A stretch of 41,263 bases of DNA from Fidelibacterota bacterium (GTDB lineage Bacteria > Fidelibacterota > Marinisomatia > Marinisomatales > UBA2128), in assembly GCA_046861645.1 (NCBI GenBank), contig JBHHUM010000014.1:1-41263 (forward strand), in the 5' to 3' direction. The notes under the pieces were generated by a model, which was not told the DNA's origin, ran no database searches, and saw nothing but the letters and a program-made list of their open reading frames with translations. A program made the translations under genes and the position numbers. Of this stretch, positions 1 to 37,249 are shown piece after piece (positions within the stretch are counted from its first letter, which is position 1; every line of letters starts with the position of its first letter).

Positions 1-101
1 GTGACTGTATCGGGGAGTGTATCAGGGTAAGGAGCTGGTGACTGTACGGGACAGGCGTTGAATGTTTTTATTATGTCTAATTCAGTAAGTTTATGGAACA
101 T
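1..101 (-). CDS. Possible 5' end of a gene running off the left edge (MFHKLTELDIIKTFNACPVQSPAPYPDTLPDTV...), product unknown
   Basis: ATG at 101 on the minus strand with an open frame to the window edge, divergent from proS; too short to identify. Confidence 0.3.
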   Translation of the reverse strand, partial: MFHKLTELDIIKTFNACPVQSPAPYPDTLPDTV

Positions 102-4038: not shown

Positions 4039-4557
4039 TCAGGGAACTTCTTGCCCTGATTGGGTAAGGACAGAATCACGTACAGCTAACAATCCTACTA
4101 TTAAGAACAATACCTTATAAAGTCTTTCGTGAAGATTCGTGATGATCACTATCCAGCCATGTCCCTTCAATATTAACAGAAGAAATAGAGGCATTACTAT
4201 AAATAGCACAATCTGGTAGAGTAAAAGGAGTGTGACTAATTTTTTATTTTTTACTCCTCCCAATAGGCCGAGGGTTAGCCAGAAGTAACCGTTGAAAGGT
4301 AATTCTACTTTAGTCCGCTGATCTAATTGGGGGCGTTGGGTAATTAATTGTAACTCATCTTCCCCAGGTTCGATTTTAACTTTTTTGTTAACTAACGAAC
4401 TTTTTTGGATAGCCGGGTATATTAGTTCATGTATTAACAGAGACTGGAGGGGTCTAACGATACTGATATATAGAACCCCACAGATAGTCAGACTGAGGAA
4501 AACTTTTTTCCAGATAAGAGAATTTGCTGATCGCTGATGATTGTCCATAGATACCAC
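4039..4557 (-). CDS. Multi-pass membrane protein, probable exosortase-associated or inactive exosortase-like protein
   Basis: About 4 hydrophobic segments with a layout like the upstream exosortase; VELPFNG at the position of VEIQNGCNG; late His (NLHERLY); start uncertain (4557 or 4548). Confidence 0.55.
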   Translation of the reverse strand: MVSMDNHQRSANSLIWKKVFLSLTICGVLYISIVRPLQSLLIHELIYPAIQKSSLVNKKVKIEPGEDELQLITQRPQLDQRTKVELPFNGYFWLTLGLLGGVKNKKLVTLLLLYQIVLFIVMPLFLLLILKGHGWIVIITNLHERLYKVLFLIVGLLAVRDSVLTQSGQEVP

Positions 4558-5036: not shown

Positions 5037-5193
5037 TGAGTTTCTTGATCGCTAAGCTTCCTCCTAACACTGCCAGTAAACCCAGTCCGCCGATAGGTGC
5101 CTGGTTGGGTGAAGAAGGAAAATTCGGCTGCGCTGCTATAGTTGTTAAAAATCCCAAATGAACCATAACAAATACAAAGAACTTGTATATCAT
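5017..5193 (-). CDS. 58-aa PID-CTERM-like protein-sorting micro-protein MIYKFFVFVMVHLGFLTTIAAQPNFPSSPNQAPIGGLGLLAVLGGSLAIKKLIDRQRK
   Basis: Translated by hand (below the ORF-track cutoff). SD GGAGGT about 10 nt upstream; signal peptide ending IAA|Q; Pro-rich linker; APIGG motif, TM helix and basic tail; overlaps the exosortase start. Confidence 0.85.
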   Translation of the reverse strand: MIYKFFVFVMVHLGFLTTIAAQPNFPSSPNQAPIGGLGLLAVLGGSLAIKKLIDRQRK

Positions 5194-5212
5194 AATCTCT
5201 TTACCTCCAATC

Positions 5213-7252
5213 TTATTTAAGAAACGTTATTTTTCGAGAAAAAGTCTTATCCCCATAAGACAGTTTTATTAAGTAGATACCAGATGCCAGATTTTGTGCA
5301 TCCCACACCATATTATATTCACCTTTCACAGTTACACCACTCACTAAAGTGTCCATCTTCCGACAAAGAATGTCGTAGATAGCTAACTCCATATCAATTG
5401 TATTTGGAAGATTAAAGCTAATTGTAGTAGAAGAGTTAAAAGGATTCGGATAGGGAGGATAGAGCATGAATTCTACGGGCATTATCTCATCTTCAACTTC
5501 GGTATTATCATAGTTGATAGTTAGACTGAACCTGGACTCACCCACTTTGGGATAGGATGCCATTTCTTCACTAGAATTATATGCAAAGCCCCCTTTGGCA
5601 TTAGTAGAAAAATTGTAACTACTCATTTCCATCAGGTTTATAGTTTCAGCTACTACTGTATCTTCTAAAATGAGGGTTATATCGGAAGGTAGATCGGACA
5701 GATTCCACGACATGGCGACCTCGGCATTTGTGGTAATAAAACTGTCAGTAGTAGCTTCGAGCATCATAACATCAAGCATAACTTTGGGTTTTTCTGTAAG
5801 TGTGGAGGGGAGATTGTTTATAGTCAAAGCGCTGTCTTCCACATAAAACATACTGGTGAGATGAGTCTCGTAATCCAAGGGTAAAAGACGATAAGCATCA
5901 GCATGGTCAATCCCGATCAGCCCGTCCGGGTTAAATGACAAATAAACGGTAGTTTGTCGTTCATCGGTTGAAAAAGTCAAGTAAGCACTACCACTGGAGT
6001 TATTTATCTGTTTGAAAAATGTGCCGGCGGTGCTGGATTTACAGTTTGCTGTAAAGTCAAAGCTGGTACCACTGGCACCTGATTCTATCCAGAACCCCTG
6101 GTACGGTGCGATTAGACCATTGGTAAGGTCACCAGTCGATCCATTCCACGTCTTGTACGCACCTGAGGCGTCATCCCAGACATAGACTGTTGAAGAATAA
6201 TTACTGTTATCAGTGAATAATTGATCAGCGTCAATGGTAGCTTCGAATGGATTGCCCAACAGATTCCACTCACTGGCAGTAGTGGTTACAGAGACGGTTG
6301 CACTGTTCTCCGAGCCTGTAACAGATAAATAAACAGGCAGGTCATCGTAACCATCATTGTCCACATCGCTGAAAACATAAACAAGGACTCCAGTGCCAGC
6401 GGTATATGAGGCTGTAGTCAGGTTTGTCAGTGCTGACCAGGAAGCGCTGGAAGCATCATATGTCCAGACATTAGCATCGCCACCGGTGACATCTCCACCG
6501 GTCATACCCTGTGTCCATAAGGGAGCCAAAAGGTCGTCGTAAACTGTTCCAGATACAGGACTGGATAGTATTCTGAAGCCAGAGTTACCACTTATACCTT
6601 GACCGACAGTGAATGAATTGCTCAATGCCGCGTAAGCTGAGGTATTATTACCATTATAATTGCCGTTTTGTGCCGTTAGATATCTTAAAGTCGATTTGGG
6701 CCCAGTTATACCGTTGGAGGTATCGTATTGATAATTGTCTGAGGTAGAAAGATTGACAATGGTGTTATCATTCTCACTTAATCCAGTGGGTATGTAGGAG
6801 TAGTTGGATGTAACTGTGCCAGAGGTAATCCAGGATGTACCCCTTGCCCAACCGATTCCATATATGAACGTTTCAGATCCAGCACTTCCCTGATAGACAA
6901 TAATATTATCACCGGAACTGCTGGCATTGTAGGAACCTGAAGAAGACCATTCACCTCCTGCGGATCCGGAAAAAGAGACTACCGACCCAGCGGTTACGCT
7001 TGCTGAGGCGGTATAGGTCAACGTTCCTTCGTTGGTCAGTAAGGCTGATCCATCCCACGGGTTGTCTGTAAATTTGATTACCGTGTTTGCTTCCATATCT
7101 ACAAGGGGTACGAAGTCAAAGTTATCGTTTCCATCGGCATTGACAGTAACTATCATTAAATCGCCAGCGGCGAGAGTGGTTTGGGCCTGGAGGTTTACAA
7201 ACAGGACAAAAAATAGCGGTATAACAAGAAAATGAGTATAAGAGTATTTCAT
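5213..7252 (-). CDS. Secreted Ser/Thr/Gly-rich surface protein with a T9SS type A-like C-terminal sorting domain
   Basis: Signal peptide (NLQA|Q); WNLLGNPF and IAPYQGFW beta-rich segments; C-terminal YPNPFN...IYDIL...LASGIYLIKL...KITFLK. Confidence 0.88.
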   Translation of the reverse strand: MKYSYTHFLVIPLFFVLFVNLQAQTTLAAGDLMIVTVNADGNDNFDFVPLVDMEANTVIKFTDNPWDGSALLTNEGTLTYTASASVTAGSVVSFSGSAGGEWSSSGSYNASSSGDNIIVYQGSAGSETFIYGIGWARGTSWITSGTVTSNYSYIPTGLSENDNTIVNLSTSDNYQYDTSNGITGPKSTLRYLTAQNGNYNGNNTSAYAALSNSFTVGQGISGNSGFRILSSPVSGTVYDDLLAPLWTQGMTGGDVTGGDANVWTYDASSASWSALTNLTTASYTAGTGVLVYVFSDVDNDGYDDLPVYLSVTGSENSATVSVTTTASEWNLLGNPFEATIDADQLFTDNSNYSSTVYVWDDASGAYKTWNGSTGDLTNGLIAPYQGFWIESGASGTSFDFTANCKSSTAGTFFKQINNSSGSAYLTFSTDERQTTVYLSFNPDGLIGIDHADAYRLLPLDYETHLTSMFYVEDSALTINNLPSTLTEKPKVMLDVMMLEATTDSFITTNAEVAMSWNLSDLPSDITLILEDTVVAETINLMEMSSYNFSTNAKGGFAYNSSEEMASYPKVGESRFSLTINYDNTEVEDEIMPVEFMLYPPYPNPFNSSTTISFNLPNTIDMELAIYDILCRKMDTLVSGVTVKGEYNMVWDAQNLASGIYLIKLSYGDKTFSRKITFLK

Positions 7253-8604: not shown

Positions 8605-9523
8605 GTTGGCGGAGATAAAACTTATAGCCTATAGCAGTAGAAGCTACGAGTAAATAACGGACGAAAATATTACTTAAGGGAAAGGGAACTAACTTGAGTT
8701 TAAACTTAGCAATATAGATGTTGAAAGGATGCATCAGGATCATTCCCACGAACCGTTTCCAGGATAAGCGCCCGGGTACTATGAAATCAGCGCCTACAAA
8801 AGGAGCAAGCTCAGGAAACTTCTCAAGGATGACAGGTAAATTTTTCTCACCGAATTCATGGAAGTTTTTCATTGCTTCATTCAGGGTTTTAAGCTTGTGC
8901 ATTTTTACTTCAATTTCAGGGGCATGGAAGAGACCTTGCGGATAGTTTTCCCAAAGTCGATAGGCGTATTCAAGATCAATACCATAACCCGGTAGTTTTT
9001 CATTAAAGTATCCAGTCTTTATCACGGCTTCTTTTCTGATGGAAGTACAGGTCAGGATAAAATATTTGAAGGGTAGTGGTTTTTCCCTTGGGATAAGTTT
9101 TGCTCCTCGTTTTCCTTCAAAAAGGTAGCGATGGTACTTATCCCGCAGGTTTCTGGTGTTGGGACGAAGGTTGGACAGCACGCCTACTATTTGTTCATTC
9201 CTATAGTAGCGCACGTGTTTGGATACAAACGATGGAGATACCTCTATATCACAATCCATGAAAATAAGTAGCTCACCGGAAGCGGCTTTTATTCCCGAGT
9301 TTCGGGTTGTAGGTCGTCCCCGGTTTTTTTCATGTCTGATGATAAGACATTGCTTTTGCCATTTAGGGTTGTCCAGAAGCTGAGGTGTCGAATCTGTCGA
9401 GGCATCGTCTACTAGGATTATCTCTAATTGTTCTGCAGGGTAATCCTGTGATAAAAGGGGTGGTATGGTGATGGGCAGGATATCCGCCCCATTAAAGATG
9501 GACACGATAATTGAAACCTTCAT
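8597..9523 (-). CDS. Glycosyltransferase family 2
   Basis: VSIIVSIFNG, EIILVDDASTD, RNSGI, FMDCD (DxD). Confidence 0.92.
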   Translation of the reverse strand: MKVSIIVSIFNGADILPITIPPLLSQDYPAEQLEIILVDDASTDSTPQLLDNPKWQKQCLIIRHEKNRGRPTTRNSGIKAASGELLIFMDCDIEVSPSFVSKHVRYYRNEQIVGVLSNLRPNTRNLRDKYHRYLFEGKRGAKLIPREKPLPFKYFILTCTSIRKEAVIKTGYFNEKLPGYGIDLEYAYRLWENYPQGLFHAPEIEVKMHKLKTLNEAMKNFHEFGEKNLPVILEKFPELAPFVGADFIVPGRLSWKRFVGMILMHPFNIYIAKFKLKLVPFPLSNIFVRYLLVASTAIGYKFYLRQHG

Positions 9524-18865: not shown

Positions 18866-19453
18866 CTAAAAACCTAGCATAAAATAAACCTGTTCACTAC
18901 CTAGCTTAGATTGAAAAGCTAGCTCAACATCTTTTGGATCACGGGGGAAGGTGTAGATTAGTTCAGAAACTAATGTAGCTCCTGGTTTGATGATACCGAC
19001 ACTATTTTTACTGCGCATGATTTCCAGGTTTCCAGGGTTTCCGTCACGATCCATCAGAGTGAGGAGCATTAAGGCACTCATATCTAAGTTTGACTTACCA
19101 CGGTTTTCAATCTCTACAGAGATAGTAATCGTTTTAGCATTTTTTTCAGCCCTCAACAGACGGATAGCAGCCTGACCGGTAGTTTGGGTCTCTCCCACAC
19201 CTCGGGCAATACGACTTTCCCTGAGAGCTTCAACAGGAATATAGAACTCAGTAGTAGCCTTGATGAACCGGCCCGTTTTATCTTTGGAAAGTTTTGTTAT
19301 ACTGGCTCCAGGAACCAGATCGCCAATGGTTTTGCCATCAGGTTTTTCAAAGATTTCTGTATTTTTAGCTACTTCCGTTACTTGTGAAATTACTGGCTGA
19401 AAAAGAGCTGACAATATCAAGGGGAGAAGCAGCTTAAATTGTTGCATTGCCAT
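18866..19453 (-). CDS. Exported protein with an SH3b-like N-terminal module and an Ig-like (DUF4352-like) C-terminal module
   Basis: Signal peptide (PVIS|Q); TEIFEKPDGKTIGDLVPG...FYIP resembles SH3b; ITISVEIENRG...IKPGAT...LIYTFP resembles an Ig-like fold; overlaps the motB end. Confidence 0.65.
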   Translation of the reverse strand: MAMQQFKLLLPLILSALFQPVISQVTEVAKNTEIFEKPDGKTIGDLVPGASITKLSKDKTGRFIKATTEFYIPVEALRESRIARGVGETQTTGQAAIRLLRAEKNAKTITISVEIENRGKSNLDMSALMLLTLMDRDGNPGNLEIMRSKNSVGIIKPGATLVSELIYTFPRDPKDVELAFQSKLGSEQVYFMLGF

Positions 19454-25895: not shown

Positions 25896-26774
25896 CTAAA
25901 CTTCTATAGTGATCACCCGGTCGTCCCCATTATAATCTTTGTACATCTTGCGATTTGTATATCTGGCACCCGTGAAGATTTGTTCCACCTGTTGGGGATG
26001 TTTGCCTCTACCTACTTCCATAACCATGTGACCACCTTCCTTTACCCAATCCCGCCCTTTAGAGGCAAAGCGGTGATAGAATGTAAGGCCATCATTACCA
26101 TCAGTAAGAGCAATGCGTGGTTCGTGATCGCGGATTTCTTCCGGCAAGTCTGCTATTTCATTCTGTGGAATGTACGGCGGATTGCTGAGCAGTAAATCGA
26201 ACTTTCCGTCTATTTCTTCGCTCAGGATGTCCAGTTGTCGGAACTCAATTTGCTCCGCTAGGCTGTTCAAAGCTGCGTTTTCCCGGGCCAGCTCCAGGGC
26301 CGGTTTATCCATATCGACAGCCACAATTTTAGCTGAGGAGAGTTTTGACGCCAGACTTACTGCTATGCAGCCGCTGCCGGTGCCCACATCAACAATATTT
26401 TCTACATTGCTACTTTGTGCTATATTTAGAGCAACCTCAACAAGACGCTCTGTCTCAGGCCGGGGGATGAGGACGTTATGATTCAGGTGAAAGGGGAGGC
26501 CGAAAAACTCACTTCTGCCCGTAATATACTGGAGCGGCTCACCGGCAAGCCTGCGCTGCATCCAGTTGTCGAGTGTTATTAGCCGTTCAGACGAGATTTC
26601 ACTTTCGGTGTTGACGTACAGCTCCATCCGGGAGCATGACAGGAGGTCGCAGAGCAGCCACTCCAATTCCCACTGGGGATTCTCGATACCTTGTTGTTGA
26701 AGATAGTCGCTCCCGCACTTGATCAAGTCCACGATCCGCAGGTTAGCGGTTATACTGGGTGAGGAGGTAGTCAC
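25896..26774 (-). CDS. prmC: Release factor glutamine methyltransferase
   Basis: [30 protein letters not shown]; directly after prfA. Confidence 0.96.
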
Positions 26775-27835
26775 AATTCTTGCTGAAGTTGTTCCATCTG
26801 ATCGGCGATACGAAGTTGCTCAATCAGCTCAGCGATGTCGCCATCCATGATGCTGTCTAATTTGTAGAGGGTTAGCTCGATTCTATGGTCCGTGATACGT
26901 CCCTGAGGGAAATTATAGGTACGGATTTTAGCGCTTCTGTCACCAGTGGAAACCATACTTTTACGTACTTCCGCTCTCTCACTCCGCTGTTTCTCTTCTT
27001 CTAAAGCCAGAAGTCTTGAGCGCAATACCTTCATGGCGGCGGTTCTGTTTTTGTGTTGAGATTTCTCATCTTGGCAGGAGACCACGAGACCGGTTGGAAT
27101 ATGAGTAATACGTACAGCTGATTCGGTTTTATTGACATGTTGTCCACCGGCGCCACTGGCGCGAAAGGTATCGATGCGTAGATCATCAGGATTGATTTCT
27201 AGATCTATTTCTTCAGCTTCGGGAAGAATAGCCACTGTGGCAGCTGAGGTGTGGATCCTGCCGCTGGATTCAGTTTCAGGGACACGTTGCACACGATGCA
27301 CACCACCTTCAAATTTTAATTCACCAAAGGCGCCATTACCTTTTACGCTGAAAATAATTTCTTTTAGTCCGCCAGAACCTGATGGGCTACTGCTGAGCAC
27401 ATCTGTTGTCCACCCTTTTCTCTCGGCGTAGCGTGAATACATGCGAAAAAGATCTGCAGAGAAGAGAGCTGCTTCTTCTCCACCTGTACCAGCACGTATT
27501 TCCACGATAGTATTCTTGCTGTCGCGTCTATCTTTAGGTAAAAGAAGGTATTTTAACTCGTTCTCCAGTTCCTCTTTTCCAGAAAGGAGAGTGTCCAATT
27601 CTTCTCTGACAATTGTTTTGAGATCAGGATCATCACCATCTAGAATGGAGTAATCTTCATCAATCTGTTCCATTAATTTGATGTATTGTCGTCCCTTTGT
27701 CACGACCGGTTCCATATCGTGATGTTGCTTGGCGAGTTCCCGGTAATGCGTAGGGTTGGCAATAATTGCAGGATCGGAAAGCTGATTAGTCAGCTTATCA
27801 TATTTCCGGATAATCTCTTTGATTTTTTTCTGCAT
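26771..27835 (-). CDS. prfA: Peptide chain release factor 1
   Basis: [22 protein letters not shown] (PxT), [18 protein letters not shown]; true start is ATG 27835 (MQKKIKE), not the ORF-track start at 28021. Confidence 0.96.
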
Positions 27836-27850
27836 AATCTTATCGTATAG

Positions 27851-27890
27851 AAAAGCGGCTCCGCCTACTATACAGCGTAGGAGAAGCCGC
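27851..27890 (-). terminator. Intrinsic terminator-like hairpin after rpmE
   Basis: Minus strand GCGGCTTC-T-CCTAC-GCTGTATA-GTAGG-C-GGAGCCGC followed by TTTT: 13-bp stem with one mismatch and a short U tract. Confidence 0.65.
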
Positions 27891-27909
27891 CTAAACGATG
27901 TTTTTAGTG

Positions 27910-28125
27910 TTACTGGTCTTCGGTTGCTTCCAGTTTGTACTTTTTCCGGAATTTTTCTATTCGTCCGGCAGTATCGACTAATTTCTGCTTTCCTGTGAAA
28001 AACGGATGGCATGCCGAGCATATTTCTACCCGAAGGTCGCCTACGGTGTTTCTTACTTGGAAGCTGTTTCCGCAGGCACAGGTTACGGTACCCAGTTTGT
28101 ATTCTGGATGGATGTCTTTCTTCAT
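27910..28125 (-). CDS. rpmE: 50S ribosomal protein L31, zinc-binding type
   Basis: [37 protein letters not shown]. Confidence 0.98.
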
Positions 28126-29315
28126 TATGATTCCTCTAGTTTTACTAAACTTTCCTCTATTTTATCGAGTCCTGTTAAAAATGTTTCCTCATCGGTAGCA
28201 TATGAAAGTCTAATGTGACCTTCTACTCCGAACCCGGCACCGGCAATGGTTGTAGTATTAGCCGAGTCCAAAATATAATCACTTAGATCAAAAGACGTGT
28301 CGATTTTCTTATCTTTAGTTTTCTTCCCGAGATAATGGCTGATATCGGGGAAAGTGTAAAATGCACCGCCAGGAGTTTGGCATTTTATTCCTGGAATTTG
28401 TTGGATACGGTCAAGCATCAAATTCCTGCGTTTCAGAAAAATTTCCTTCATATTTTGAACTGCTGTCTGATCACCACTCAAAGCCTCAATCGCTGCCCTC
28501 TGCCCAATCGAGTTGGCACAGGATGTTGCCTGTCCCTGGATTTTACCCATAGCTTTAATTATGACCTGGTCTCCCGCGGTATAACCAATCCGCCAGCCGG
28601 TCATGGCATAAGTCTTAGAAAGGCTCTGCACCGTGATCACTGTGGTATCAGTGTCGTTGAGGGCTTCAGTACTCTGAAAATTACCATCGTAAACTAACTG
28701 CTCATAACATTCATCAGAGATAACAATCCAATTATTCTCAGCGGAATAATGGAGAAGCCGTGATATAGTTTGCTTGTCCCATACGGCACCGGTTGGATTA
28801 GATGGAATATTTATGATCATTAACCTGATACGGGGGTTAATCATTTTCTCCAGTTGCTCAAAATCTGGGGTAAAATTATGGTCAGCGAGTGTAGGGACGA
28901 TAACAGGCTCTCCATCAGCCAGGCGAATAAACTCCGGGAAGGAGACCCAATAAGGGGCGAAGATGATAGCCTGATCACCGGGATTCAAAATAGCCTGGCA
29001 GCAGGTACTCAGTGAGTGTTTAGCACCATTAGAAACAATGATTTGGTCGGGAGTGAAGGAAAGGTCGTTATCTCGGTAAAGCTTTTGGCAGACAGCTTCT
29101 CTCAGGGCAAGCAATCCAGAGCCAGGTGTGTATTTCGTCCATCCCTCATCCATGGCGCGTTTTGCAGCCGCTATGATGTGAGGGGGAGTATTAAAATCAG
29201 GTTCTCCTACTCCGAGGTCAATGACGTCTATTCCTTTCGCTCTTAAATCAGCCGCACGTGCAGTCATTTGGAGCGTAAAGGAGGGTTGAATCCTATCTAC
29301 TCGACGGGATAACAT
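28125..29315 (-). CDS. aspC: PLP-dependent aminotransferase class I/II, aspartate aminotransferase-like
   Basis: [44 protein letters not shown]. Confidence 0.88.
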
Positions 29316-29339: not shown

Positions 29340-30314
29340 TTAGCGTTTCCGGCTGTGGTATTTAAGTTTATTATAATTAGGCTCTTCTTCTACTCGGGGA
29401 GAGGATAAAGAATCGGTTTTCTTTTTCATTTTTTTATTAAAATTAGGTTCCTCTGGAGTTTTAGGTGAAGAGTTCTTTTTTGTTTGACGTTTCCGGCGGT
29501 GACTATTGGGGACGTCTTTGGGTTCCACTCCTTCCAGCTCCCAGTTTTCCGGGAGTTTTTCGGCTATTGCCGATCTGCTATCGCGTTGCAATTCAGCAAG
29601 ATCAAAGGAGAAGTCAGATGGATTAAAATGACTGAAGAATACGCCGTAACCCTTAGTAATACTATTACCTACACCAAGGAAGTTGGGGAGCATGAAGTTA
29701 GTTTGAAAATCACCTTCAAAGGCTCCCATCTGGCCATCATCTACGATCTTGGGATAAAGGGAATCCAAATTCAGTTGAGTGTAAATTTTAGTTTCTAATT
29801 CCAGACCCATCTCTCTGGCAAGGAACACGATGTTGTGACTTAAGAGTCGAGTGAGGAATTTGAGGCGATCATCGCCAAAAAGTTGTTTATATTTCATAAG
29901 ATTGGCTTCGTTCAGGGCAATCCATGGTGTCAGAAATTTGTATCGTAACATGCGATTGGAAGGCATGAACCGGTCGCTTTCCACTTCCACGTCTGCACCT
30001 AATACATCGAAAGTAATATTACCAAAGTCCATCGTACCCAGTTTATCCACAACGGATAAAATTGGATCTACCCCCTCGGCTATTCCTACCATGTATATCT
30101 GTTCGTTAAGAATTTTTACCTGTACTCGGGGATAGAGAAATTGGTCCCGGTAACTGCCATCTATTAATGGAACGATAGGTTCCTCAGGAAAATCCTTAAT
30201 AATGACTCCCTTAACCTGGTAGGGAGTTTTTCTAACAGGCTTATCGGTAACGAGCCTTGCTACCACTGATTTTATTTTGTATTTATTATCTGACACGTAG
30301 AACAGTACCCCCAT
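29340..30314 (-). CDS. cas6: Stand-alone Cas6b-like (RAMP fold) protein with a basic C-terminal extension
   Basis: Cas6b-type segments YPRVQVK...MVGIAEG, YKFLTPWIALNEANLMKY, NIVFLAREMG, FEGDFQTNFMLPNFLGVGNSITKGYG (GhGxxxxxGhG loop). Confidence 0.82.
   Translation of the reverse strand: MGVLFYVSDNKYKIKSVVARLVTDKPVRKTPYQVKGVIIKDFPEEPIVPLIDGSYRDQFLYPRVQVKILNEQIYMVGIAEGVDPILSVVDKLGTMDFGNITFDVLGADVEVESDRFMPSNRMLRYKFLTPWIALNEANLMKYKQLFGDDRLKFLTRLLSHNIVFLAREMGLELETKIYTQLNLDSLYPKIVDDGQMGAFEGDFQTNFMLPNFLGVGNSITKGYGVFFSHFNPSDFSFDLAELQRDSRSAIAEKLPENWELEGVEPKDVPNSHRRKRQTKKNSSPKTPEEPNFNKKMKKKTDSLSSPRVEEEPNYNKLKYHSRKR
29367..29453 (-). repeat. Two 21-nt direct repeats (29367-29387 and 29433-29453) encoding EEPN(F/Y)NK in the Cas6-like tail
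   Basis: 18/21 identity, 66-nt period; two differences are synonymous and one is F/Y. Confidence 0.7.
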
Positions 30315-30343
30315 TTTTTTCTACAATCAAGCAAAAACAAAAA

Positions 30344-31591
30344 CTATTGACTCATTGTTTCAAGGAACTCCTTATTGTTAGATGTTCTTCTAATACGATC
30401 GAGTAGGAACTCCATGGCTTCAATAGGAGTCATTTCATTGAGAATTTTCCGCAGAATCCAGATTCTTGCAAGTTCTTTTTTCTTTAACAGCAATTCTTCT
30501 TTCCGGGTGCCCGAGCGAATCAGATCGAAAGAAGGAAAGATGCGCCGATCACTGAGTCGCCGATCCAGCACCAACTCCATATTACCGGTACCCTTAAATT
30601 CTTCGAAGATCACATCATCCATGCGACTACCTGTGTCGATCAATGCAGTGGCGATAATGGTAAGGCTGCCCCCTTCCTCGATGTTCCTGGCGGCACCGAA
30701 GAATCTTTTTGGTTTGTGTAATGCATTAGCGTCAATACCACCTGAAAGGATTTTCCCACTATGCGGAGCAATGGTGTTGTGCGCCCGAGCCAGACGAGTA
30801 ATACTGTCTAAAAGGATTACAACATCATCACCGTATTCGACCATCCTTTTGGCTTTTTCCAATACCATGTTAGCTACCTGTACGTGACGTTCGGGAGGTT
30901 CGTCGAACGTAGAACTGATGACTTCAGCTTCAACATGCCGTTCCATGTCAGTGACTTCTTCAGGTCTTTCATCGATGAGCAAAACGATTAGTTTGATTTC
31001 GGGGTGGTTAGTTGTCATGGAATTGGCGATTTTCTGAAGCAGGATTGTCTTTCCTGTTTTTGGCTGTGCTACAATTACGCCACGCTGTCCTTTTCCAATA
31101 GGAGCTAAAAGGTCGAGGATACGCATGGAATATCCTTTGGTATCCATCTCCAGATTAATCTTTTCCTCCGGGTAAAGAGGAGTCAGATTGTCGAAGAGAA
31201 TCGTATTTTTACTCTGCTCGGCACTAACACCATTGACTGATTCAACTTTCAGCAAGGCATAGAATCGTTCATTAGACTTGGGTGGGCGGATTTGACCAGA
31301 AATCAAATTGCCAGTACGTAACCTGAAGCGTTTAATCTGAGAAGGAGAGAGATAAATATCATCCGGGCCTGGGAGATAGTTGTAATCAGATGATCGTAGA
31401 AAACCATAACCTTCCGACATCACCTCCAGAATCCCTTTGGTATAGAGTACTCCTTCTTCTTCTGCACTGGCCTCCAATATCTTCAGTATCAAATCTTGTT
31501 TTTTTAATCCGGAATAACCAGAAATAGACATCTCCTGAGCTAACTTGGTCAGTTCACTGATTTTTTGCCCCTGTAATTCATTAATATCCAT
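30344..31591 (-). CDS. rho: Transcription termination factor Rho, compact form without an N-terminal insertion
   Basis: [60 protein letters not shown]. Confidence 0.99.
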
Positions 31592-31683: not shown

Positions 31684-31711
31684 AATTTAGATTATATTAT
31701 TCCATTGTCAA
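31684..31711 (-). promoter_or_regulatory. Putative promoter of rho-cas6 (TTGACA-N16-TAAATT), overlapping the folC 3' end
   Basis: Perfect TTGACA (31711-31706), 16-nt spacer, TAAATT (31689-31684). Confidence 0.55.
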
Positions 31712-35317: not shown

Positions 35318-37249
35318 TCAGAAAGCAATATCCATCTGAAAACCACTATTAACCACAGGTGGAGTCCATTGACCAGTGTATCGGGAAAATCCCCATGTAC
35401 TCCTGATGCGCAAGGAAATAATGGCCCTTGATGGAGTACTTACTTTAAATAGAATGCCAACCGATTGTCCTGTACCTGTTAACATCTGGTTGCGCATTTC
35501 CCCCGGGAGGTTAATATCCCAAACGTACAGTCGTGCTTGATAGTCGTCTACAACATATCCTGTCCAATGTAAAAGCATTTTATATATGTTCCAATCCTGT
35601 TCCAGCTTGCAGGACAGGCCAAAACCGTAATGCGAAATGTTTTCCACCCTAACTGTCGATTGGTCGACCTGTAATTGAATCTTAGTTTTCTTACTGAATA
35701 TTAAAGTGGATTTAAAACGCCAAGATTCCCTCTGGCTCCCTGTTGGAATATGATTACCTTTAAAGACAGTTGTTTCTCCATTGGACTTTTGCTCTTCTTT
35801 CCATCTACATGAGTAGAGATTTCCACCTTTATGGAAATCGGCTGAAGCACTAGCTTCGTATCCATTAACCGGTACAACTCCCTCATTGTTGGGTTTATGT
35901 TGGCGGTAGAGGTCTCCGTATGCTGAAATGGTTATCTGGCCCATACGAATACGTACTGCCTGATAAAGTCCCAATTCATTCAGGTTAGAGCTACTCCACT
36001 CTCGGAAAGGTTGCGAGCGCGGACCCTGAAAATTAGCCGGGAAACTTCGTACTGAGCCAACCCAGCGAGTATTTTTGTTACTTAAAAGAATACCGGCCAG
36101 ATAGGCTAGTGGTGAAGTAGATATACCGGCCAGTTCACCGAATAACAAAGCTGGGCCAACTGTCCAACGACTGAAAATAGATGAGGCTGTGACTATCGGT
36201 TCCAATTCTTGATGAGTGCCCATGCCAGTCCAACGTTGGGCTGTAGTAGCTACTCCGATGATTCCCCGTTCACCTGTTTTTATCTGCCAGGTTCCAGCAA
36301 AGAGCTGTTCCAGTACGTTATGTTTGCGGGTTAGAGAAGATGGACTGTCGTGGATACCAGTAGTGCTTGTACTGGTTATTCCGCTGGAATCATAGACGGC
36401 ATCCTGTGGTGTGGTCGAGAAAGCTATTGAAAAGTTACCTATACCAGTTTCTGTCTGTAAAGCAATTCCCCTCAGCCCCCAATATTCTGTGGCGGAGCGA
36501 TAGGGTCGAAGACCAGAGCCAATGCGGGCAACATTGGTGATACTTCCCACCGATTTAATTGGACGTGCCGATCGGCCTAATAGAAGTCCGTAACCGGCGT
36601 GGATGCGGTAATCCCCTGTGATGAGAGTAAAGTTTGGGAACAGGTTGAGGGCAATGTAACCGGAAAAGAAGTCTGAAAGGCTGGGTTCACCTGGATCACG
36701 CTCCCATAATAGTCCCCCCTTGAGGAGAAGCTGTTGAAAACTAAGTTGTGTCAACACTCTTTGATCCTTGCGGTTAACGATCCAGCGGTTACGTAGCATT
36801 CCGCTTAGTTTATTACGGGGCGTAACGGTGGTAATTAGAGGTAGTAGTTTAGTGGCTAACTCAGAAAATCCTCCTGGGTTCATTAACTCGTTCAGTGACG
36901 AAAGTCTGCTGGTGTGATTACGCCGACTTATTATTAGAGCAATATCCAGCGATGTCAGCAGGGGCAGGGCTTCCAACTCCTGTCTGGTTACCATGTTGAT
37001 ATCAAGGGGATTCTGAACCAGTTCTTCTAGCAAAAAAAGTTCATCATCGGTGAATACAGTACCGTCTTCTTCCACCATTACAGATGCTAGTACGTCATCT
37101 AATGTCTGGGGAAGAATGCAAGTGCTAAGGCAGATGAAACTGTAAAGCAACCATCTGACTGAGTAGATGGGTTGGCTACTTAGGTCCGACAGAACTGTAC
37201 TATTGCTCTTTAAGTGGAGTCTATAGTCAACCTCGGGCGGAATCAGCAT
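35318..37249 (-). CDS. Helix-hairpin-helix domain protein with a predicted outer-membrane beta-barrel (FCB-type)
   Basis: NPLDINMVTRQELEALPLL (ComEA-like HhH), ERDPGE, GDYRIHAGYGLL, amphipathic beta strands, C-terminal Phe; true start probably downstream of 37249. Confidence 0.72.
   Translation of the reverse strand: MLIPPEVDYRLHLKSNSTVLSDLSSQPIYSVRWLLYSFICLSTCILPQTLDDVLASVMVEEDGTVFTDDELFLLEELVQNPLDINMVTRQELEALPLLTSLDIALIISRRNHTSRLSSLNELMNPGGFSELATKLLPLITTVTPRNKLSGMLRNRWIVNRKDQRVLTQLSFQQLLLKGGLLWERDPGEPSLSDFFSGYIALNLFPNFTLITGDYRIHAGYGLLLGRSARPIKSVGSITNVARIGSGLRPYRSATEYWGLRGIALQTETGIGNFSIAFSTTPQDAVYDSSGITSTSTTGIHDSPSSLTRKHNVLEQLFAGTWQIKTGERGIIGVATTAQRWTGMGTHQELEPIVTASSIFSRWTVGPALLFGELAGISTSPLAYLAGILLSNKNTRWVGSVRSFPANFQGPRSQPFREWSSSNLNELGLYQAVRIRMGQITISAYGDLYRQHKPNNEGVVPVNGYEASASADFHKGGNLYSCRWKEEQKSNGETTVFKGNHIPTGSQRESWRFKSTLIFSKKTKIQLQVDQSTVRVENISHYGFGLSCKLEQDWNIYKMLLHWTGYVVDDYQARLYVWDINLPGEMRNQMLTGTGQSVGILFKVSTPSRAIISLRIRSTWGFSRYTGQWTPPVVNSGFQMDIAF

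Follow-up and report, generated by a model that had tools for sequence, protein, structure and literature searches.

The window analysed here comprises 41,263 nt (positions 1 to 41,263) of contig JBHHUM010000014.1 from a Fidelibacterota bacterium (GenBank assembly GCA_046861645.1). Between rho and an aspC-type aminotransferase gene, it harbors an open reading frame (ORF) related to Cas6b, the endoribonuclease that processes precursor RNA (pre-crRNA) in CRISPR systems. This Cas6b-derived gene is the subject of the present study (Table 1). A sequence-only reading of the window had proposed that it encodes an orphan Cas6 protein, vertically inherited and taken over for a function outside CRISPR. 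The ORF is present as claimed, and the spacers given in that reading, 29 nt to rho and 24 nt to aspC, were both measured exactly, the latter lying between the stop codon of the gene (29340–29342) and the ATG of aspC (29315). An alternative start, a GTG six codons downstream, is used by some gene callers and results in a protein of 318 amino acids.

Table 1. Features of the Cas6b-derived gene and its surroundings (positions count from the first letter of the window; aa, amino acids).
Feature	Position	Strand	Details and basis
Cas6b-derived gene	29340..30314	(-)	324 aa; ORF, Pfam, match to PDB 4z7k, fold model
Cas6b_N domain (PF17955), aa 13-109	29988..30278	(-)	Pfam, 2.3e-08, 34.5 bits (cut-off 25)
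Cas6b_C domain (PF17262), aa 119-225	29640..29960	(-)	Pfam, 2.5e-26, 92.6 bits (cut-off 39.4); same place in whole-genome search
Former active-site stretch P49-L-I-D-G-S-Y-R56, in place of H-x-H	30147..30170	(-)	Alignments
Glycine-rich loop LGVGNSITKGYG, aa 213-224	29643..29678	(-)	Alignment of 26 sequences
C-terminal extension, aa 229-324, largely disordered, with an acidic part followed by a basic one	29343..29630	(-)	Alignment, model
Spacer between rho and the gene, 29 nt	30315..30343	(-)	rho stop ends at 30344, ATG of the gene at 30314
rho	30344..31591	(-)	415 aa; Pfam Rho_N, Rho_RNA_bind, ATP-synt_ab
Promoter-like site TTGACA-16-TAAATT	31684..31711	(-)	In the 3' end of folC; lies some 90 nt upstream of rho and fits the consensus at 10 of 12 positions
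aspC-type aminotransferase gene, next gene downstream	28125..29315	(-)	Pfam Aminotran_1_2
rpmE (ribosomal protein L31)	27910..28125	(-)	Pfam; prfA and then prmC beyond

By sequence as well as by fold, the gene is a descendant of Cas6b, the crRNA endoribonuclease of type I-B systems, which cuts repeat RNA at a site 8 nt upstream of the spacer and has a fold of two RRM/ferredoxin-like domains. The Cas6b segments and the glycine-rich loop reported earlier were recovered, the former as two Pfam domains above their cut-offs and the latter at the expected residues, with glycines G216, G222 and G224 invariant across 26 sequences, CRISPR-linked Cas6b included. The PADLOC models for Cas6 and Cas6b matched with E-values of 2.1e-42 and 1.8e-38, respectively, and an NCBIfam scan of the protein gave no match. 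The Cas6b_N domain scores far below that of CRISPR-linked paralogues of the same phylum (2.3e-08 vs 1.9e-29 and 1e-26). The sole solved relative found by sequence is Cas6b of Methanococcus maripaludis (4z7k/4z7l; E-value 3.3e-25 over aa 34–225). A structure model built on a 26-row alignment reached a mean predicted local distance difference test score (pLDDT) of 82 and a predicted template modeling score of 0.75; the means of ten-residue blocks lie between 89 and 97 in the core (approximately aa 11–230) and mostly below 65 in the tail. When this model was compared to the PDB with Foldseek, ranks 1 to 5 were occupied by Cas6b chains (4z7k/4z7l; template modeling score 0.80 to 0.85 on the target), followed by other Cas6 types; the best match was 4z7k_A (E-value 2.8e-18, 0.80 on the target). 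Both the profile search for the two domains and the structure prediction, which had been suggested as checks, thus matched Cas6b. Several proteins, among them NusG, Rof/YaeO and Psu, are known to bind Rho. When the protein was scanned with Pfam at E-values up to 10, nothing matched apart from the two Cas6b domains, and hence no known family of Rho-binding factors.

The residues on which catalysis depends in M. maripaludis Cas6b are not conserved in the window protein. According to the mutant data of PMC3479195, the single exchanges H38A, H40A and Y47A lower the activity of the Methanococcus enzyme, with considerable activity remaining in both single histidine mutants, while the double mutant H38A/H40A suffers a drastic loss with most of the processing gone; the Y49A variant was insoluble. 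In the alignment of the window protein to 4z7k, P49 takes the place of H38, and either Y55 (HMMER) or I51 (MAFFT) that of H40. The region upstream of the conserved segment had been described as free of histidine, which was confirmed for EEPIVPLIDGSYRDQFLYPRVQVK (aa 44–67); the loss of the histidine pair is shared by the whole clade of rho-linked proteins and their relatives (rho-type, delimited by the tree described below). None of the 49 rho-type sequences carries a histidine at the H38 or the H40 column, whereas both are present in 116 of the 125 other Cas6b sequences, one in six and none in three. The Y47 column holds tyrosine in 13/49 rho-type sequences compared to 114/125 other Cas6b (it is Phe59 in the window protein). 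At the Y49 column, tyrosine is found in 44/49 and 115/125, respectively. The motif P/S-[LFM]-[ILM]-[DN]-G replaces H-x-H in the rho-type clade, and around the former active site the rho-linked sequences share an invariant G53 as well as nearly invariant R56, R63 and K67. Since ordinary Cas6b proteins with the histidine-bearing HNH motif are also present in the same phylum, the loss of the histidines belongs to the rho-linked clade and not to the phylum. Of the features that define a functional CRISPR Cas6b, the protein lacks three: both catalytic histidines, the supporting tyrosine, and a setting of cas genes or an array.

Judging from these replacements, the protein is likely nuclease-dead. 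The earlier wording, "possibly nuclease-dead", holds in so far as both catalytic histidines are gone across the clade; death itself is unproven, because the Cas6 of Sulfolobus solfataricus cleaves without an active-site histidine by means of a network of lysines and arginines, none of them essential (PMC3652601). By analogy, the window protein might still be an endoribonuclease with basic residues in place of histidine, whose substrate would be a cellular RNA (an mRNA, or the precursor of an rRNA or tRNA) rather than pre-crRNA. The conserved G53, R56, R63 and K67 would fit such an active site, as would the activity remaining in the single histidine mutants of the Methanococcus enzyme. This alternative is considered unlikely, since the measured contributors H38, H40 and Y47 are all unconserved (0/49, 0/49 and 13/49), the loss of both histidines cuts processing drastically in Methanococcus, and no phylum-conserved repeated element resembling a substrate was seen; the repeats examined, which are those of the own genome alone, resemble a transposable element and a tandem array. 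From the sequence, the protein is somewhat more probably a binder of RNA than a nuclease. It would bind a specific cellular RNA via the retained RNA-binding surface of Cas6b and cut it slowly or not at all. The suggestion that the ligand is a hairpin RNA found no support in this analysis.

No CRISPR system was found that the protein could serve. The 34 ORFs of the window scanned with Pfam besides the Cas6b-derived gene are housekeeping genes or lack a Pfam match, and no cas gene is among them. A search for CRISPR arrays in the window found none, and no family of direct repeats within 120 nt was detected; the lone tandem repeat (1.9 copies) is located inside prfA. The absence of cas genes and arrays from the 41 kb, as previously stated, is thus borne out by both scans. 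The same applies to the whole genome (2.51 Mb in 184 contigs, 94.47% complete), in which model searches gave no match to Cas1, Cas2, Cas5, Cas7 or RAMP proteins, Cas6b_C matched exactly once, in the window gene, and a k-mer scan of all 184 contigs for CRISPR-like spacing yielded no spacer-bearing array. Since an incomplete assembly cannot prove that a gene is missing, comparative counts weigh more. Among 140 genomes of the order with a completeness of at least 85%, the Cas6b-derived gene is present in 119 and Cas1 in 15, and 104 gene carriers have no Cas1 match. The gene is accordingly not limited to CRISPR-bearing genomes, a restriction that had been named as refuting the proposal, and is with high probability both CRISPR-independent and functional.

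Several orthologues bear the NCBI label "CRISPR-associated endonuclease Cas6", which would suit a trans-acting maturase of crRNA whose arrays lie at another site of the genome or are missing from the assembly. Arrays are often absent from metagenome-assembled genomes, the own genome is incomplete and fragmented as given above, and Cas1 does occur in some genomes of the order. Nevertheless, such a role is extremely unlikely in view of the many carriers without Cas1, the lack of all other searched Cas proteins in the own genome and the clade-wide loss of catalytic residues. Moreover, the gene tree tracks the kinship of the species, unlike that of mobile cas modules, and the lone type I-B operon examined (cas6b-cas8b(TM1802)-cas7-cas5 of genome G022, locus L036) has a histidine-bearing (HNH) Cas6b of its own. 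The other histidine-bearing paralogues examined are likewise located away from rho; in family f29, HNH-type Cas6b copies were found in 10/30 genomes, all apart from rho.

Some further observations were made at the loci of these paralogues. Between cas6b and cas8b of the G022 operon, a gene for a YhcG/DUF1016 nuclease of the PDDEXK type and a 161-aa ORF without Pfam match are inserted (L036:4281-5420, (-)). A second histidine-bearing Cas6b paralogue (G020, L035:355-3033) is encoded beside an ORF6N gene and a HEPN/HTH-nucleotidyltransferase pair; no other cas gene is present within the 7.5 kb examined there, the contig end being near.

Two repeat families were noted in the genome. CRISPR-like spacing was shown by a single k-mer cluster, a tandem array of 61-nt units at the end of C4 and the start of C26 (C4:3433-3565 and C26:1-77, split by a contig break), which was rejected as a CRISPR array for its near-identical units and the lack of spacers; each unit contains two short hairpins. 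The second family is a non-coding repeat of approximately 400 bp whose ends are inverted repeats (GGCTATGTTC ... GAACATAGCC), found at window positions 1-100, at C125:~9010-9400, C131:~5070-5360 and C51:~945-1330 and at many contig ends. Its 14-mers are the most repeated of the genome (up to 14 copies, mostly at contig ends), and the window begins inside one copy. The element looks like a miniature inverted-repeat transposable element (MITE) and probably breaks the assembly.

To place the protein within the Cas6b family, an alignment-profile search was run against 1.84 billion cluster representatives, with 1712 matches at E-values of 0.001 or below, 1175 at 1e-10 or below and 262 at 1e-30 or below. 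The best 150 representatives, minus seven shorter than 195 aa and three fragments lacking the N-terminal part, were combined with the proteins of the loci (10 near-duplicate loci left out) and cut to the first 245 residues. In the resulting tree of 174 rows (quick IQ-TREE search, LG+G4, no bootstraps), a branch with a Shimodaira-Hasegawa-like approximate likelihood ratio (SH-aLRT) support of 98 separates 49 rho-type rows, made up of 28 rho-linked proteins and 21 cluster representatives, from the remaining 125, among which are six CRISPR-type Cas6b of the same phylum. Within the clade, the own order forms one group, two class-level families are sister to it, and the other classes branch deeper. 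Amino acid sequence identity to the window protein decreases from 80–86% in the genus to 39–68% in the order, 35–44% in the class and 25–34% beyond. Since the subtree follows the kinship of genus, order, class and phylum, it fits the vertical inheritance postulated before. A locus search starting from a 5-row alignment returned six loci, five of them labelled Marinimicrobia/Neomarinimicrobiota and one Lentisphaeria, and no clear case of a rho-type member outside the phylum was found among the loci searched. As far as its members could be placed, the clade is confined to SAR406/Marinimicrobia/Fidelibacterota.

The core of the protein is under purifying selection. Its nonsynonymous divergence (dN) within the genus amounts to 0.032–0.053, compared to 0.038–0.065 for Rho in the same pairs, synonymous sites being saturated in most comparisons; with values this close, the core is constrained as strongly as Rho. 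The C-terminal tail, on the other hand, diverges much faster (dN 0.23–0.30).

Within the order, all families carry the gene without exception (100% of the genomes in 15 families) apart from family f12, in which it is missing from all 21 genomes; in a sample of 40 relatives it was found in 37, corresponding to 15 of the 16 families. The genomic position was the same wherever the loci were inspected. In 37/37 loci of relatives, rho is located directly upstream in the same orientation, irrespective of whether these belong to the order (19/19), to the class or phylum (14/14, 28–44% identity) or to family f25 (4/4, approximately 25% identity). aspC follows downstream in 17 of the 19 order-level, 10 of the 14 more distant and all four f25 loci. 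The spacers between rho and the gene range from 9 to 90 nt across 31 related loci. The conserved location that had been suggested as a check was thereby found, in an order of mostly Cas1-less genomes and with aspC next in most cases.

In four loci (L028, L029, L030 and L037), folC, aspC, rpmE and prfA are not nearby, yet the pair of rho and the Cas6b-derived gene is intact. The spacer is 9 nt in L028 and approximately 20 to 40 nt in the three others as estimated from the ends of tblastn matches. The flanks of L028 to L030, which were scanned with Pfam, contain genes for UbiA and LspA, dnaE and carotenoid genes instead. These loci with a broken block speak most strongly for a pairing with rho that goes beyond the inertia of a stable gene block.

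From the arrangement in the window, rho and the gene appear to be co-transcribed; this is inferred from the short spacers, the lack of terminator-like sites separating rho from the gene or the gene from aspC, and the conserved promoter-like site upstream of rho. Transcription of the gene with rho would start at this site in the end of folC. The pattern TTTGACA...TAAATT recurs in place across the order-level loci, including those of f12, which lack the gene. The leader of rho is approximately 90 nt long in carriers and 55 nt in f12. Promoter-like sites as such are not enriched in the region (12 found vs 10.3 expected).

Taken together, the retained Cas6b fold, the lost catalytic residues, the lack of a CRISPR system, the adjacency to rho and the vertical descent suggest that the gene product is a vertically inherited, CRISPR-independent and domesticated RNA-binding protein made with Rho, which is regarded as moderately probable from the sequence data. 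The notion of an exapted Cas6 outside CRISPR put forward in the sequence-only reading is supported by the profile and fold matches, the mostly Cas1-less carriers and the conserved location. A functional link to Rho is more tentative and somewhat less likely than not. The protein might act on the fate of RNA together with Rho or balanced against it, either by holding transcripts for Rho or by shielding them.

Several points weigh against this interpretation and especially against its connection to Rho. The loss of the histidines is no proof of lost cleavage, given the Sulfolobus precedent (PMC3652601) and the near-invariant R56, R63 and K67. Not every genome of the phylum carries the gene; a match was found in 165/276, and some of these matches are ordinary Cas6b. 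It is absent without trace from all eight loci examined of family f17 (same class, genomes of 1.1–2.1 Mb) and all eight of f12 (same order, genomes of approximately 1 Mb). Both families keep folC-rho-aspC-rpmE with aspC directly after rho, which shows that the block is stable even without the gene. As the gene is present in deeper branches, these absences are most simply explained by two independent losses, and the gene is dispensable in streamlined genomes. With the folC-rho-aspC-rpmE-prfA block conserved either way, the linkage to rho could be a frozen accident. On this view, the position would go back to one insertion into a stable block, and the work of the protein would be unrelated to Rho, for instance in translation or ribosome biogenesis (in line with the neighbours rpmE, prfA and prmC) or in general nucleic-acid binding via the basic tail. 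Such an accident is considered somewhat doubtful, because the adjacency to rho survives the break-up of the block in the four loci mentioned above and the gene is always found on the side of rho in the same orientation.

The sequences of Rho itself also speak for an accident rather than for an obligate partnership. Among the Rho columns invariant in 22 carriers, none is changed in both gene-losing lineages; one is changed in f17 and eleven others in f12, which argues against an obligate interface on Rho. As regards a possible RNA ligand, none was found: Rfam at gathering thresholds gave no match in the window, and a visual comparison of rho leaders and spacers from 31 carrier loci (four of them from f25) and 16 non-carrier loci revealed no motif confined to carriers. 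Independently of these comparisons, Rho of f12 (L052-L059) was observed to be longer than that of the window (428–452 aa vs 415), with a low-complexity insert rich in lysine, glutamate and proline after the N-terminal helix bundle.

A complex prediction of Rho with the window protein gave a score of 0.46 (0.46, 0.41 and 0.55 in the individual runs) and no interface, compared to 0.00 for the best of three controls. The runs showed a contact agreement of at least 45% and a partner pLDDT of at least 72. As custom 22-row alignments were used, the calibration of the score is only approximate; the mark applied is reached by 116/157 solved complexes and 2/215 mismatched pairs, and scores of 0.60 or under comprise only 18 of the 157 solved complexes but both of the passing mismatches. 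The value obtained falls into the band of weak support, in which a predicted complex would, without a strong prior, be wrong more often than right.

The most far-reaching version of the domesticated RNA-binding protein would be a sequence-specific RNA-recognition partner of Rho, for which a CRISPR module was recruited into the termination machinery early in the phylum. This version is distinctly unlikely at present. It would imply a transcript-specific loading or exclusion of Rho, with the tail of the own order as a docking arm added later.

This tail is found only in the own order, where the proteins are 288 to 382 aa long in contrast to 211 to 263 aa in the class- and phylum-level orthologues. 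It comprises a conserved junction (FNP..F.F[DN]), a stretch of acidic residues, a motif resembling DVPK[SP]RR (also written DVP-(K/N)-S-(H/R)-RR), a variable basic part and a terminal [DE].[NK][FY]N...[YF]H[KR].. motif (also written EPN[YF]N..KYH.RK), and its pLDDT stays below 65 except for aa 261–270 (81). An EEPN[FY]NK unit occurs twice in members of the genus (window positions 29343-29459, (-)) and once, at the very C-terminus, in the other families of the order. The order-specific acidic-basic tail with its terminal motif probably provides an additional contact, either with protein or with nucleic acid.

Besides the genes listed in Table 1, the window contains proS, recO, genes for polysaccharide synthesis, eno, dnaE, prmC, prfA, folC, murI and an amidase gene. 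Three ORFs were without Pfam match at an E-value of 1e-6 or below (35318-37249 (-), 643 aa; 4039-4557 (-), 172 aa; 18866-19453 (-), 195 aa). The longest ORF of prfA (26771-28021 (-), 416 aa) extends into rpmE, and the PCRF domain in it begins only at aa 72; the true start of prfA is probably an internal methionine approximately 60 codons downstream of the start of this ORF.

Compared to known systems, the window protein shares with M. maripaludis Cas6b both Pfam domains, the fold, the glycine-rich loop and the Y61-P62, Y125 and P130-W131 motifs. It differs in the lack of an equivalent of the H38/H40 pair or of Y47, the absence of cas genes and arrays from the genome, the fixed position of the gene after rho, the vertical descent and the 96-aa tail of its own order. 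The CRISPR-linked Cas6b paralogues (L036 and L064-L073) belong to the same family and phylum and show approximately 24 to 30% identity to the window protein. Unlike it, they keep the HNH motif, are not encoded beside rho, fall outside the rho-type clade and occur patchily. S. solfataricus Cas6 (Sso1437) is a member of the Cas6 superfamily without canonical catalytic histidine (PMC3652601); in contrast to the window protein, it is a working crRNA nuclease of a CRISPR-bearing archaeon and belongs to another Cas6 subfamily (a related chain, 3zfv_C, came only at rank 39 when folds were compared). Cas proteins without array or adaptation module are furthermore exemplified by solo Cas4 and by a cas5-cas6-cas7-cas8 module with a STAND NTPase in Streptomyces (PMC8730458 and PMC5704561). 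Both are still predicted to act in defence or to be mobile, and their distribution is patchy, while the window gene is a single cas6 relative fixed in a housekeeping operon.

A literature search combining Cas6 with SAR406, Marinimicrobia, Fidelibacterota or Marinisomatota found no description of a rho-linked Cas6b relative, and the Cas6 passages of a 2022 review on CRISPR exaptation (PMC8730458) do not mention such a rho-linked case. The re-use of Cas proteins has so far been found mostly in defence-like or mobile contexts. If the interpretation as a domesticated RNA-binding protein is true, the gene would clearly exemplify how a module for RNA recognition in immunity became a housekeeping factor, fixed across several classes of a phylum. 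The current annotation as "CRISPR-associated endonuclease Cas6" miscounts its carriers as holding CRISPR parts. SAR406/Fidelibacterota is an abundant and almost uncultured phylum of the ocean, and the gene would provide a direct handle on RNA regulation in this group. Should the protein work with Rho, it would represent a novel type of factor that lends specificity to transcription termination.

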